NCBI GenBank assembly: GCA_038087875.1
Contig: CM075992.1
Span: forward strand, 4,962,001-5,026,000
Direction of reading: 5' to 3'
From: Malacoraja senta
Taxonomy: Eukaryota
Length of the DNA stretch: 64,000 nucleotides
A model generated the notes under the pieces. That model worked only from the letters and a program-made list of their open reading frames with translations. It ran no database searches and was not told where the DNA came from. The first letter of the stretch is position 1. Each line of letters starts with the position of its first letter. Position numbers and translations under genes: made by a program. Shown one piece after another: positions 47,579 to 54,733 of the stretch.

Positions 47579-50186
47579 AGTAAATCTTACAGTTCTTTGG
47601 AATTGCACAACATCAGTAGTACAGAGACAGATAACTGGTTAATAAAAATACAGAAGCAGAAACAACAAAAGTGCACTATCCATTTATACAAAGACAACTA
47701 TATCTTAATGTTCCTGTCTATAGCACAAACTGCACAGGGCCAGAATCCACAGCAAATGGACTTTATACCAACAAGCACCAGACACCACAGCAGGAACTTT
47801 GTCTAAAATACATAATAAAAGGCTGCAGGAATGTTTTTATTTATAATTTTGAAAGCACTAGATCAGGGCATGTTGCTAGCGTATTGTGTGAATGGGAGTA
47901 TATTGGTAATCAAGACCAAAGCAAACTGCAACACAAGAACCTCCTTCACCTAATGGCAGGAGACACAATTGACGTCTGAAGTTGAAGGGGATTAGTGTTG
48001 CAGGAAAATTGGTGATTTGTACATTAATTCTATGGAATAGGGATATAGTGATACATTAGAGTGATACAGTGCAGAAATAGGCCCTTTAGCCCAACTTGCC
48101 CACACCGGCCAACATGTCCAAGCTACACTAGTCCCAACTTGCCCATACCTGCCAGCATTTGGACCAGATCCCTCCAAACCTGTCCTATCCATGATGGTCT
48201 GAGGAAACATTTGTATTGAGTCCAGCCAAGCTTGGATAAGTCATCAACCCATTCTACCACCACATTCCCCATTTCTAATTAGGACTTTCTATAAAAATAA
48301 CCAAAAAAATGTAGGTTTGCTCCACAATAGTTTACGCAAACACTAAATCGAGCAGAAAACTTAACTCCATTAAACTTTCAGCCAAGATATTCAGAGTTCA
48401 AATTCTATCAGTTTATGTGAATGACCATTAGTGGAGTGTTACTGAATAAACTGTATACTTCACTATGTTTCTGGTGGTTTTCATTTATCATTTATATTCC
48501 AAGAAAATATATAGTAGGCTAACAAAAGCAAGGACAATACTCCCCATGGTTCAGAGTTTGGGTTAGCAACGCAGTAAAAAAGACACCCTCTGTAATTTTA
48601 ATTCATCTCTGCAAGGACAATATTATATCTGTGTATTAGCTTGTTCCTGTTCAGTTTTAATTATTTTATTCAATATCTGATAGAATTTTTTAAGAAAACA
48701 AAAAATGTTCTGTTCAGCAAAAATAACTACTTTAATAGTGTACACAAAATGCTGGAGTAACTCAGCTGGAGTAACTCAGGCAGAGAGAAGGAATGGGTGA
48801 CGTTTCGGGTCGAGACCCTGCTTCAGACTGAGAGTCAGGGGAGAGGGAAACGAGAGAAATAGACAATGGACAATAGACAATAGGTGCAGGAGTAGGCCAT
48901 TCGGCCCTTCGAGCCAGTACCGTCATTCAATGTGATCATGGCTGATCATCCCCAATCAGTACCCCTGGAAATGGAAGGGTTAAAAAGGTGTGACGCAAAA
49001 TGCTGGAGTAACTCATTTAATGGTGTGTTGTCTCCCTGGAAAATGTGCCATTTGCAAAGCAAAATATCTCTGGGCCTGATGGATAAGTTGAGGGTTGAAG
49101 CAGCATATGTACAACTCGAGACAGCTGGCCAGTGGAGAGGAGTTGTTGTCAGGGTGCTGAATAGTTGTTTGAACTACAGCAGTGAAAGTGCCGAGAATTA
49201 AGTGGAAAGCAAAAGTTTAAATTTGTGGGCATCATAAAGCAAAAGGGCACATGACACACAAACCCATGAATTAAGTGTTTCATTTAAATGTATTCTATCC
49301 AAGATGGCATCCGTCCAACCCGGTCAACTCTTTGTGTACTAGTCACAGAAGTGGATCTGCAATCACGCATTACAATGACTCATCTTGCCCACTTTACCCT
49401 TATGTAATTAAACAGGTGACAAGGGGGACATTTAAATCTATTCGTTGCAGCATTCTTTGACAGCTTGTAATATCAAGCTAACTGGTTATATCTGCATTAT
49501 TTGTCGTTGATCCAACTGTTCTGAAATTATATGGAATGCTACAGTTTAGAGTGCAGTTCATTTCAGTGCCGTTAACGTACAGAGCCGCACATCTTTGCAA
49601 CGTGAGAGAAAGCCAGAGAACCTGGAGGCACCGTCATTGGGAGAACGGTCGAACTCTACACAGACAACACTTGAGGTCAGGATCAAACTCAGGTCTCTGG
49701 CGCCGTGAGGCAGCAGCTCTACCCTTGTGCCTCCGTGCCACCCTAGGGATGCGACTAAGAATCTCCTTTCCATTCCACAATTAGTATTGGTTTATTATTG
49801 TCCCGGGTACTAAGATACAGTGAAAATAGGCGCAAAAGAATGGGAAATATAACCTGTACAAAATAACCCTATAACTCAAGTCTTATTGTGTTAGGTGTCC
49901 AATGTAAATGCTCATGCTTCGCTCTAAACAGGTGATAGAAGAAGGGCAAAGAACTTTCGGGCAAAACAAATGACAATTTTCAGGCATCTAATAATTTGTT
50001 GCTATAATGCAGGAGGGTTTGTAGAATTGTCCCAAGGACCGAGGCTGTAAAATGACCACCCGGCGTTCAATAAAGAAACTAAATGATGTTTGAAGAGATC
50101 ATAGTTTTGCCAACTGGAGACTCTCATGCTGCTCGCAAAATGTGTGATTGTAAATTAATATTTATATTTGCTATCAGCTTTGTGAG

Positions 50187-50240
50187 GGGGTGGGAGATTG
50201 CAACCTTCACGTGGTCCGCCCTGTTTCGACGAATGCAATC
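50187..50240 (+). ncRNA. Minimal HDV-like (CPEB3-type) self-cleaving ribozyme
   Basis: P1 GGGGUGG/CCGCCCU (G1-U wobble), P2 GAUUGCA/UGCAAUC, P3 ACC/GGU, L3 UUCACGU, J4/2 CGAA; P4 reduced to UUCGA. Confidence 0.85.
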
Positions 50241-50325
50241 AACCTGGCGTGCACAATCAAATAAGATCAAATAGAACAAGTTGTCCTACAACTTTAGGCT
50301 GTGCACGCCATACGCTAGAAGAAGA
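50187..50325 (+). mobile_element. Ribozyme-headed short retroposon with (GAA)n tail
   Basis: TSD AGCTTTGTGAG(G) at 50176-50186/7 and 50326-50336/7; 11-bp stem 50245-55/50300-10; tail agaagaaga. Confidence 0.85.
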
Positions 50326-50349
50326 AGCTTTGTGAGGAAGATATGCACA

Positions 50350-50665
50350 GGGTATTTTACCCAGGGAAGGGGAATCAAAAAGAAGAGGACATATGTTTAA
50401 GGTGAGCGGGACAAGACTTAGTACAAAGCTGAGGGGTGAGTTTTTCACTCAGAGGATAGTGGGTGTATGAAACAAGATGCAATGGGAGGTAGTTGAGGCA
50501 GGTACAATAATGGCATTTAAATGACACTTGGACAGGTACGTGGACAGGAAAGGCTTTAGAGGGTATGGGCCAAACGCAAGCAGGTGGGACTTGCTTAGAT
50601 GGGGCATCTTGGACGTGTTGGGCCAAAGGGCCTGTTTCCCTGTGTAAATCACATGGCTCTATGTG
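50350..50665 (+). mobile_element. CR1-like LINE 3' end
   Basis: agaggacatatgtttaaggtgag...gaggtagttgaggcaggtacaat...gggcctgtttcc. Confidence 0.8.
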
Positions 50666-51735: not shown

Positions 51736-52005
51736 CTATTCGGTTGATGGAAACCCGCTTCCACTGCCGTCGATGTCCTCAACGAAGAGGGAGCGCTTGT
51801 GCATGGAGCGCCTCAGCTTGTTGATGATGCTGCGCTTCTCCCTGCACGGGAGCTTGCTGTCAGCGTCCACCTTGGTGCTGTCGGTCTGCACCAGCGTTGC
51901 CACCACTCGCGCGTCGCCCTTGTCCATGCTCAAGCAGTTGCACGATCGCACGGTGAACGTGTCGCTGCCCGAGCTCTCGCACAGATCCTTGCCGTTCTTG
52001 TACAT
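51736..52005 (-). CDS. rtbdn: Retbindin / riboflavin-binding protein family, last coding exon
   Basis: gtgactag|MYKNGKDLCESSGSDTFTVRSCNCLSMDKGD...EDIDGSGSGFPSTE*; aligns to RBP MYANGTDMCQSMWGESF...CLCLQM; GSGSG tail as in RTBDN; syntenic with RNASEH2A. Confidence 0.9.
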   Translation of the reverse strand: MYKNGKDLCESSGSDTFTVRSCNCLSMDKGDARVVATLVQTDSTKVDADSKLPCREKRSIINKLRRSMHKRSLFVEDIDGSGSGFPSTE

Positions 52006-52157
52006 CTAGTCACACAGGCGAGAAAGAGAGGCGTTAAGCTGTGTGAGTGTGTTGAAGCCAGTGTGTGGGCGAGCACGTGTGTGAGAGCGCGTGTGTGTGA
52101 GCCGTGTGCGAATGCTGTGTGCACGCGTGTGTGAACGAGTGCGCAGGGAGCGACTGT

Positions 52158-53778
52158 AAGAGCGAGTGTGAGAGCGAGTGTTGGAGCGAGCGTGAGAGCG
52201 AGTGTGAGAGCGTGTGTGAGAGCGAGCATGAGCGTGTGTGAGAGCGAGTGTTGGAGCGAGCGTGAGAGCGAGCGTGAGAGTGAGTTAGAGCGAGTGTGAG
52301 AGCGAGCATGAGCGTGTGTGAGAGCGAGCGTGAGAGCAAGTGTTGGAGCGAGCGTGAGAGCGAGCGTGAGAGCAAGTGTTGGAGCGAGTGTGAGAGCGAG
52401 TGTGAGAGCGTGTGTGAGAGCGAGTGTTGGAGCGAGCGTGAGAGCGAGTGTTGGAGCGAGTGTGAGAGCGAGTGTGAGAGCGAGTGTTGGAGCGAGTGTG
52501 AGAGCGAGTGTGAGAGCGTGTGTGAGAGCGAGTGTTGGAGCGAGCGTGAGAGCGAGTGTGAGAGCGAGCGTGAGAGCGAGCGTGAGAGCAAGTGTTGGAG
52601 CGAGTGTGAGAGCGAGTGTTGGAGCGAGTGTGAGAGCGAGTGTGAGAGCGTGTGTGAGAGCGAGTGTTGGAGCGAGCGTGAGAGCGAGCGTGAGAGCAAG
52701 TGTTGGAGCGAGTGTGAGAGCGAGTGTTGGAGCGAGTGTGAGAGCGAGTGTTGGAGCGAGTGTGAGAGCGAGTGTTGGAGCGAGCGTGAGAGCGTGTGTG
52801 AGAGCGAGTGTGAGAGCGAGTGTGAGAGCGAGTGTGAGAGCGAGTGTGAGAGCGTGTGTGAGAGCGAGTGTGAGAGCGAGTGTTGGAGCGAGTGTGAGAG
52901 CGTGTGTGAGAGCGAGTGTGAGAGCGAGTGTGAGAGCGTGTGTGAGAGCGAGTGTTGGAGCGAGCGTGAGAGCGAGCGTGAGAGCAAGTGTTGGAGCGAG
53001 TGTGAGAGCGAGTGTGAGAGCGAGTGTGAGAGCGAGTGTGAGAGCGAGTGTGAGAGCGAGTGTGAGAGCGAGTGTGAGAGCGAGTGTTGGAGCGAGTGTG
53101 AGAGCGAGTGTTGGAGCGAGTGTGAGAGCGAGTGTGAGAGCGAGTGTGAGAGCGTGTGTGAGAGCGAGTGTTGGAGCGAGTGTGAGAGCGAGCGTGAGAG
53201 CAAGTGTTGGAGCGAGTGTGAGAGCGAGTGTTGGAGCGAGTGTGAGAGCGAGTGTGAGAGCGTGTGTGAGAGCGAGTGTTGGAGCGAGCGTGAGAGCGAG
53301 CGTGAGAGCAAGTGTTGGAGCGAGTGTGAGAGCGAGTGTTGGAGCGAGTGTGAGAGCGAGTGTGAGAGCGAGTGTTGGAGCGAGTGTGAGAGCGAGTGTG
53401 AGAGCGTGTGTGAGAGCGAGTGTGAGAGCGAGCGTGAGAGCGAGTGTTGGAGCGAATGTTGGAGCGAGTGTGAGAGCGAGTGTGAGAGCGTGTGTGAGAG
53501 CGAGCGTGAGAGTGAGTGTGAGAGCGAGTGTGAGAGCGAGCGTGAGAGTGAGTGTGAGAGCGAGTGTGAGAGCGAGTGTGAGAGCGAATGTTGGAGCGAG
53601 TGTGAGAGCGAGTGTGAGAGCGAGTGTTGGAGCGAGTGTGAGAGCGAGCGTTGGAGTGAGCGTGGGAGCAAGTGTGAGAGCGAGTGTGAGAGCGAGCATG
53701 AGAGCGAGTGTTGGAGCAAGTGTGAGAGCGAGTGTGAGAGCGAGCGTGAGAGCGAGTGTGAGAGCGAGTGTGCGAGCT
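52158..53778. repeat. 12-bp minisatellite (GAGAGCGAGTGT and substitution variants)
   Basis: ~135 units with the phase kept throughout; source of five long repetitive ORFs. Confidence 0.97.
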
Positions 53779-54733
53779 AGTGAGTGTCATCATCGGGTTG
53801 TACAGCACAGAAACACACTCATAACCACACCGACCAAGTTATTCATCAAACTTAATCCCATTGTCTGCCAAATATCCCTCTGAGCCTTTCTTTTTCTTAT
53901 ATAAAATGACATAACGTAAGTGGTGCATAAAGTCTTGGTGGAATGTAAACAGAAGCTAGTAACTGTTTGGGGATGTTTGATTTGAATTTGATATTTTTGT
54001 AGTCAGCTTTGTGAGGAAGATGTGAGTTTGGATGTGAGCTGGCTGTTTCATTTTGACTGAACAAGGATCTAGAGAACAGAAGCACAACATCACTAGAGGA
54101 ACAGGGAACTTCAGATGCTGGCTTACAGAAAAATATACTCAAAGTATTGGAGTGATTAAATGTTTAAGAAAGAACTGCAGATGCTGGAAAAATTTAAGGT
54201 AGACAAAAATGCTGGAGTAACTCAGTGGGTGAGGCAGCATCTATGGAGCGAAGGAATAGGTGATGTTTCAGGTTGAGACCCTTCCTCAGACAAAGTAATG
54301 GAGTGATTAAGTGGGTCAGGCAGCATCCCTGGAGAAGGTGGATCGGTGACGTTCTGAGTTAGGACCCTTCACAACATTAATATTACTGACGAGGCACAAA
54401 TAATTTGAAATTTCAACACCCATCATTCACTTAAGATCTTTGCAGTGAAGAAAATATGAAGAGGATAAAGGTGGAAAATATTGAGACGTAAGTGAAGATA
54501 GATGCTGGATATTGAACAAAACCTAGTGCTGGAAGAGCATGCGAATAGAAATGCATAGATGGCCCTTTGGGTTGTGATCTCCTGCTTGCCAACCATTTGT
54601 AATTCCCCTTCCCATACTGACCTTCCCACATTGCCAGTGTGAAGGCACATGCAAACTTGAGGAACAGCACCTCATATTTTGTTGGCTAGCTTACAACCAA
54701 ATGGTACGAACATTGAAATCTCCAATTTTAGAT

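Follow-up and report, generated by a model that had tools for sequence, protein, structure and literature searches.

We analysed a 64,000-nucleotide stretch of the genome of Malacoraja senta (GenBank assembly GCA_038087875.1, contig CM075992.1, positions 4,962,001 to 5,026,000 of the forward strand; hereafter the window). Positions 50187-50325 form a 139-nt unit, present once in the window, that is probably one recent insertion of a non-autonomous retroposon lacking long terminal repeats (non-LTR) and built of three modules. The first would be a 54-nt minimal ribozyme of the hepatitis delta virus (HDV) type, with a core like that of the CPEB3 ribozyme and no P4 helix. The second would be an element-specific spacer that supplies the 5' arm of an 11-bp stem, and the third the last ~40 nt of an RTE-like long interspersed nuclear element (LINE). 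Release by a ribozyme followed by copying by a LINE is the likely overall explanation, in which we infer that the head cleaves itself, that the element depends on read-through transcription and that the enzyme is the one of that LINE. An initial annotation, made from the letters alone, had proposed a unit resembling a short interspersed nuclear element (SINE) with such a head. We re-read every one of its coordinates and pairings in 49900-50600 and all were confirmed; the 11-bp stem, the tail and the flanking direct repeat are present at the positions it gave (Table 1).

The fit of 50187-50240 to the HDV-like plan is well beyond chance. Our own generic descriptor consisted of a 7-bp P1 starting with G, J1/2 of 0-8 nt, P2 of 6-7 bp, P3 of 3 bp, an L3 of 7-8 nt with C as its third base, G after P1, 4-40 nt, C-N-A-A and the 3' strand of P2. 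On both strands of the window it matched this segment only, and it had no match in 300 simulated 64-kb windows (~38 Mb) built from the window's dinucleotide transition frequencies. The segment has the nested double-pseudoknot order P1-P2-P3-L3-P3'-P1'-P1.1-(P4)-J4/2-P2'. As in HDV ribozymes, a G.U wobble stands at +1 (G50187 pairs with U50222) and the presumptive catalytic C is followed by N-A-A (C50230-G-A-A). The nested minimum-free-energy structure of the 54 nt is exactly P1 plus P3. The 3' stem-loop of the element is clearly non-random, at -23.9 kcal/mol (z -4.76), and none of 200 shuffles folded as well.

Comparison of the 62 nt at 50183-50244 with 4,227 Rfam families returned HDV-type ribozymes as the two best matches, CPEB3 (RF00622; 13.1 bits, E 0.2, model positions 1-78 of 78) and HDV-F-prausnitzii (RF02682; 14.4 bits, E 0.52, model positions 1-74 of 74). 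The second of these alignments begins at G50187 and is in register with the proposed P1, P3 and L3. The CPEB3 alignment sets P1 one base further in and agrees with the proposed fold at P3, L3 and CGAA. An Rfam search with HDV and CPEB3 models, suggested in the initial annotation, thus placed two HDV-type models first on the 62 nt, but both stayed below their gathering scores. The same search at E<=10 on 301 nt gave only two small nucleolar RNA rows at chance level and nothing HDV-like. The claimed likeness of L3 and CGAA to the CPEB3 ribozyme holds, both being identical to the Rfam CPEB3 consensus.

The element belongs to a large family in the 1.94-Gb assembly that contains the window. Its first 25 nt had 9,107 genome matches, as expected from the prediction of many copies, and its last 25 nt had 5,928 (each with at most 2 mismatches); reversed-pattern controls for these 25-mers had none. 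A DNA search with the 139 nt, which skips very common words and is less telling for copy number than the pattern counts, scored 40 of 54 candidates at 90-100% identity, and 36 of these 40 begin at query position 1. We also sampled 70 further loci by the 3' motif alone, leaving 68 after the removal of two duplicated loci. Sixty-one of them align from position 1-3 and three keep the head before an internal deletion, so that the 5' head is kept in 64 of 68; one starts at position 4, and the other three are 5'-truncated. The predicted family 5' end at G1 is therefore recovered in both samples.

The flanks of 31 copies were mutually unrelated, with short direct repeats right at G1 and after the tail. 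A clear target-site duplication (TSD) abuts G1 in 47 of 74 full-length copies, which agrees with the individual TSDs anticipated for the family; these are 9-16 bp long, most commonly 11 bp (20 of 47). Flanks and TSDs differ between copies, and insertion is dispersed, without specificity for ribosomal DNA (rDNA). About half of the TSDs (24/47) have AG or GA as their first two bases, and T-rich sequence immediately precedes the TSDs. This agrees with annealing of the (GAA)n tail at the nick in target-primed reverse transcription. A DNA transposon or miniature inverted-repeat transposable element was considered and rejected, as the inverted repeat is internal and not terminal, the tail is a simple repeat and the TSDs are variable.

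Words from the element occur in 24 sequencing runs of 10 organisms from 12 studies, all of them contigs and none recorded as RNA. Contigs cannot show RNA ends and bear on the limits of insertion only, not on cleavage. The family was present in all four runs examined, from four organisms, and in these 54, 12, 3 and 1 loose contig ends change over from unrelated sequence to the element precisely at 50187. We gave no weight to contigs whose first base is G1, since assembly breaks are expected at repeat edges. One run (X3) holds a contig that covers the unique left flank with 2 differences and then joins 50175 to 50326. It skips 150 nt, equal to the element plus one TSD copy, and 12 letters fit either side of the joint. 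The insertion is therefore recent or polymorphic, with the limits predicted. The earlier proposal that it starts at the predicted cleavage site is upheld, as an 11-bp TSD abuts G50187 and the empty site confirms these limits. In the same run, G>T at 50231 accounts for ~46% of depth, and every change at 50230 stays below 10%.

The majority consensus of 88 non-redundant copies is identical to the window copy except at element position 130 (position 1 is G50187), and most differences among copies are CpG decay. Some variants are linked to each other and thus mark lineages of source copies: A32 with A71, C86 and T100 (p ~1e-9), and T45 with A32 and A71. Within the ribozyme, variants are frequent at positions 8 (J1/2), 32, 42 (the P4 stand-in) and 45 (the N of C-N-A-A). 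At position 32 (50218) a G>A change, typical of some subfamilies, turns U.G into U-A and keeps the P1 pair. The catalytic candidate C44 (C50230) is kept in 82/88 copies and is T in only 5/88; at G45, its CpG partner, 18 copies have A and 9 have T. Both A positions of J4/2 are kept in 88/88. G1 is kept in 73/88, most of the others lacking one G of the run. A CUAA variant of J4/2 characterises one subfamily, and the F. prausnitzii Rfam consensus likewise has CUAA there. Subfamily B2 (a five-copy consensus) differs from the main consensus A very unevenly: the ribozyme is identical at 52/54 positions, with both changes at tolerated sites, the linker plus 5' arm at 13/15, the loop at 11/30 and the 3' end at 36/37. 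The two ends are conserved around a replaced middle, the pattern that would arise if source copies were selected for a functional head and tail. No subfamily consensus has lost the presumptive catalytic C or any of the helices.

Element positions ~100-139 correspond to a LINE's last three codons, stop codon, whole 19-nt 3' untranslated region (3'UTR) and (GAA)n tail. This LINE was found by a pattern that forbade the bases of the short element at positions 90-99 beside block 104-124. Three copies (L140-L142) share homology that reaches as far as 870 nt upstream of their common end, at 86-91% identity, and encode a decayed reverse transcriptase (RVT_1, E 2e-12 and 1.8e-9); a match to zf-RVT, the C-terminal zinc knuckle, had 24.6 bits, below the 27.5 cut-off. 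The reading frame ends ...DLQL, followed by TAG (corresponding to window 50295-97), 19 nt and (GAA)n. L034, which consists of a very short LINE-type end preceded by sequence that is unique in the genome, is 100% identical to L142 over 41 nt. A LINE-specific 20-mer just upstream of the common end has 423 genome matches, and ~35 copies bearing reverse transcriptase were scored at at least 73% amino-acid identity. In anatomy alone (a very short 3'UTR and a simple-repeat tail), the partner resembles RTE-clade LINEs, which are described as having TSDs of 6-12 bp and very short simple-repeat 3'UTRs, one example being (GAA)2GA (PMC2887409).

The initial annotation had expected a LINE that shares both the 3' stem and the tail. 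A LINE with a reverse transcriptase domain does share the last ~40 nt, but of the stem it has the 3' arm only. Because the LINE 3' end has no 5' arm, the 11-bp stem is an invention of the short element. The stem would place the reverse-transcription entry site of the short element in a helix.

An alternative origin is that the element is an internally deleted copy of an RTE-like LINE that itself bore the same 5' ribozyme, and not a chimaera of a ribozyme and a LINE tail. We consider this somewhat unlikely. It would parallel the short internally deleted elements (SIDEs) of R2, which are reported to have arisen by internal deletion (PMC3414825, PMC6765202); RTEs of other animals are reported to carry 5' HDV-like ribozymes (PMC6765202), and the 3' end of our element is LINE-derived. 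However, the ribozyme end was followed by a non-SINE continuation at 137 places, and none was recurrent among the 100 listed. Thirty such places were retrieved; three had foreign downstream sequence, with no Pfam domain there. The spacer and 5' arm also lack a counterpart in 1.5 kb of LINE 3' sequence, and the one LINE copy examined upstream is 5'-truncated. Since the 5' ends of old LINEs seldom survive, this test has little power.

Other patterns gave no further lead to the LINE. Non-ribozyme sequence followed by the 5' arm had 45 matches, none recurrent, and non-loop sequence followed by the last 25 nt had 10, none leading to a LINE. A block-in-loop pattern had 151 matches, which were deletion variants of the short element and were rejected as LINE candidates. 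A fixed LINE sequence would have had only about an even chance of passing any one such forbidding pattern. A survey of (GAA)n tails in 339 kb found copies of the short element and one unrelated repeat only. The best RVT_1 matches in the genome were L1-like LINEs with A-rich tails and not the partner.

Several results weigh against the reading of a ribozyme-released, LINE-copied retroposon. The whole window had no Rfam match at gathering thresholds, and the two HDV-type scores are far under their cut-offs (RF00622, 13.1 versus 35; RF02682, 14.4 versus 44). Absence of P4 lowers the score under these models, and they take no account of P2, with its 7 perfect bp. The nested fold energy of the 54 nt is no better than that of shuffles (z +0.92; whole element, z -1.43). 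That test is blind to the P2 pseudoknot and so counts neither for the ribozyme nor strongly against it. In this one genome, with no diverged relative, no two-sided compensatory change was found in P1 or P2, and the sole shared helix variant (G32A) is one-sided. A second family with the same P3/L3 core and a different P1 was likewise not found, the 16 genome matches being 15 deletion variants and one chance match. Every helix and core residue is intact in only 37/88 copies, which is expected for decaying copies and gives no support. For the LINE, no intact copy was found among 150 scored matches (longest open frame, 442 amino acids), though some copies of the short element are very young. The LINE 5' end and endonuclease part were not recovered from the sole copy followed upstream. 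The LINE 3' end, which shares only one arm of the stem, has no pairing partner (z 0.65 and -0.12). Finally, a sharp 5' end in thousands of copies also fits a fixed transcription start.

The last point is what an ordinary SINE would show. Its 5' end would be the start of transcription from an internal RNA polymerase III (Pol III) or a Pol II promoter, and the HDV-like fold a coincidence or an inactive relic. The sub-threshold Rfam matches and the lack of any observed covariation also agree with this explanation. Because the element lacks any TTTT run, Pol III could transcribe through it, and a promoter in the head is conceivable since the same 77 nt of L1Tc are described as acting as both promoter and ribozyme (PMC3383444). 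Yet a transfer RNA (tRNA) scan with ARAGORN found none in the element, and Rfam gave no tRNA, 5S, 7SL or small nuclear RNA match at E<=10. The best matches to the A-box and B-box consensus sequences have 3 mismatches each, and we estimate that 139 nt would contain about one match of this quality by chance. Chance is very unlikely to place a descriptor match precisely at position 1, with none in the 38 Mb simulated, and the presumptive catalytic C and helices persist in every subfamily consensus while the loop was replaced. We therefore judge an ordinary SINE improbable. The element falls outside a strict definition of SINEs because it has no Pol III head, and it shows the other features of that definition, namely a 3' end common to a partner LINE and dispersed copies with TSDs.

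On the reading of a ribozyme-released retroposon, a copy inside any transcription unit would be read through by the host polymerase. Its head would then fold and cleave 5' of G1, giving an RNA with a defined 5' end and a 5'-OH. The LINE protein would bind the freed RNA at the shared LINE-type 3' end, and the RNA would be copied into a nicked T-rich/purine target by target-primed reverse transcription, leaving a TSD of ~11 bp. The element would thus be promoter-independent. A scheme of cleavage, read-through and target-primed reverse transcription is described as established for R2 and proposed for promoter-less RTEs (PMC6765202, PMC7761336). The ribozyme could also be real and serve mainly elsewhere, in host transcripts after insertion, in protein binding or in translation. 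The R2 ribozyme region is reported to bind R2 protein as well, and HDV-like ribozymes to be able to promote translation initiation (PMC6765202, PMC7761336). Our element has no open reading frame (ORF) to translate, however, and the coincidence of the 5' end of its DNA copies with the predicted cleavage site is a direct signature of 5' processing before reverse transcription. A main role of that kind is most improbable.

Table 1 Features of the retroposon copy in the window (coordinates in the 64,000-nt stretch).
Feature	Position	Strand	Evidence
5' target-site duplication AGCTTTGTGAG	50176..50186	+	Direct repeat; empty-site contig joins 50175 to 50326
Candidate minimal HDV-like self-cleaving ribozyme, 54 nt	50187..50240	+	Sole descriptor match in window; family 5' ends here; Rfam RF00622/RF02682 sub-threshold
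Predicted cleavage site	5' of G50187 (50186/50187)	+	Fold and family 5' ends
P1 5' strand GGGGUGG	50187..50193	+	Pairs with CCGCCCU 50216-50222; 7 bp; G1-U wobble at base, U5-G pair
J1/2, GA	between P1 and P2 5' strands	+	Sequence reading
P2 5' strand GAUUGCA	50196..50202	+	Pairs with UGCAAUC 50234-50240; 7 Watson-Crick bp; pseudoknot unscored by Rfam models
P3 ACC (50203-05) / GGU (50213-15) around L3 UUCACGU (50206-12)	50203..50215	+	L3 equals Rfam CPEB3 consensus
P1.1	C50208 can pair with G50223	+	Sequence reading
P4 stand-in UUUCGA, six nt	50224..50229	+	Sequence reading
J4/2 CGAA, presumptive catalytic C50230	50230..50233	+	Sequence reading
SINE-specific 5' arm of 11-bp stem	50245..50255	+	Pairs with 50300-50310; no counterpart in LINE 3' end
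Variable loop region, replaced in subfamily B2	50256..50285	+	11/30 columns the same, A versus B2 consensus
LINE-derived 3' end	50286..50325	+	Last three codons (L Q L), TAG stop 50295-97, 19-nt 3'UTR, tail; LINE copies L140-L142 end alike
3' arm of 11-bp stem, inside borrowed 3'UTR	50300..50310	+	Pairs with 50245-50255
Tail AGAAGAAGA	50317..50325	+	(GAA)n-type
3' target-site duplication AGCTTTGTGAG	50326..50336	+	Direct repeat; empty-site contig

Several neighbouring and related repeats were recorded alongside the element. Fragments of another, highly repeated element lie at 50339-50600 (+) and 47992-48240 (-), and in translation (…EAGT…FK.HLDRY.DRKG..GYGPNA…) they resemble the C-terminal part of a LINE ORF. 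The first of these LINE-like fragments lies shortly downstream of the retroposon copy, and contig depth marks 50351-50422 as repetitive. At 51930-53880 the window holds ~1.9 kb of short-period tandem repeat, with several frames open on both strands (ALTLALTL / SHSLSHSL / ECESECES-type). Elsewhere in the genome, the 3' part of the retroposon recurs regularly at G000:C20:6844484-6860554 (every ~3.1 kb) and at G000:C1:229135560-229230971 (five times), evidently carried along in tandem or segmental duplications. Copies often sit inside one very abundant repeat (…GACCCGAAACGTCACC…CTCCAGAGATGCTGC…; flanks of L004, L018/L019, L029, L101, L102, L119 and L127), which has GAAGAAG-like stretches of its own. 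The L1-like LINE family with A-rich tails (L131, G000:C2:44046533-44049900, and many other loci) includes many copies with an uninterrupted 1,271-amino-acid frame and identical hidden Markov model scores; judged by its sequences, it looks very young and may be active.

Among known systems, R2 SIDEs of Drosophila are described as short internally deleted R2 elements with an HDV-like ribozyme head (PMC3414825). Our element shares with them its non-autonomous nature, the lack of an ORF, a candidate HDV-like 5' ribozyme and a 3' end taken from a LINE. The 5' end of R2 SIDEs is reported to derive from a co-transcript and their 3' end to be recognised by the parent LINE protein (PMC3414825). Unlike R2 SIDEs, which are rDNA-specific and plain deletions of R2, the family described here is dispersed, with varied TSDs of ~11 bp, an RTE-like tail and its own spacer. 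Nor did a parent bearing that head emerge among the 100 listed of 137 ribozyme-end places. The element therefore falls outside the definition of an R2 SIDE, as it has neither rDNA specificity nor a demonstrated parent.

RTE-clade LINEs of mosquito and other invertebrates are described as promoter-less and released from read-through transcripts by an HDV-like ribozyme (PMC6765202). Our element would resemble them in this mode of release, and it does so in the very short 3'UTR that ends in a simple repeat. They are autonomous, whereas the candidate ribozyme here heads a 139-nt non-coding vertebrate element. Ruminski et al. 2011 is said to be the primary report of 5' HDV-like ribozymes in the RTE clade. 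Among non-LTR elements, RTE and baggins are both listed as ribozyme-led (PMC6765202).

The likeness to the mammalian CPEB3 ribozyme (RF00622) lies in L3 UUCACGU, CCCUGU after P1 and CGAAU in J4/2, all identical to the consensus. The one-pair P1.1 is presumably also the same arrangement as in CPEB3. The CPEB3 ribozyme is a single-copy intronic ribozyme with a full P4. The candidate described here differs from it in having no P4, in its P1, P2 and P3 sequences, in its score of 13.1 bits against a cut-off of 35 and in its retroposon setting. Minimal HDV-like ribozymes without P4 are described from metagenomes (drz) and from phages (theta ribozymes), next to tRNA genes (PMC10879173). Our candidate resembles them in its length of ~54 nt and its lack of a P4 domain, and differs from these metagenome and phage ribozymes in heading a vertebrate retroposon.

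In trypanosomatids, L1Tc/NARTc and related elements are described as a LINE and a non-autonomous partner that share a 5' HDV-like ribozyme (PMC3185411, PMC3383444, PMC4035085). They are dispersed like the present family, but in them, as reported, the 77 nt double as an internal promoter and a truncated LINE serves as the partner. Schistosoma SINE-like elements are described as short non-autonomous retroposons with hammerhead ribozymes, Pol III transcription and a tandem arrangement (PMC6765202). The element studied here has a candidate ribozyme of a different class, no Pol III likeness and no tandem arrangement of that type. Twister variants are reported in Schistosoma non-LTR elements (PMC8501958), and some LINEs and SINEs are stated to use hammerhead or HDV-like ribozymes (PMC6765202).

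Ribozyme-led retroposons as a kind are already known, because R2 SIDEs, L1Tc/NARTc and RTEs have been published. What sets this family apart is the vertebrate host, the dispersal in ~10^4 copies, a minimal head without P4 and a CPEB3-like core, together with a putative pairing between the element's own spacer and a borrowed 3'UTR. No account of a family of this kind in cartilaginous fishes turned up in the papers searched, as distinct from Repbase and Dfam. A bolder proposal is that vertebrates hold a class of SINEs headed by a minimal HDV-like ribozyme, with about ten thousand copies and no promoter of their own, and that CPEB3 is the domesticated head of an ancient element of this class; we regard it as very improbable.

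If the head cleaves, the family would be a high-copy vertebrate retroposon that needs no promoter, and any sense copy in a transcribed region would be a source. This would be a route to SINE success other than the Pol III heads by which SINEs are classified. The origin and role of P4-less HDV-like ribozymes are called undetermined in one account (PMC10879173); if the reading is true, these ribozymes would gain a eukaryotic setting and a function. The family would then offer thousands of natural variants of one ribozyme and a testable candidate source for the CPEB3-type core, and its sense-strand copies in introns and untranslated regions could truncate host transcripts.

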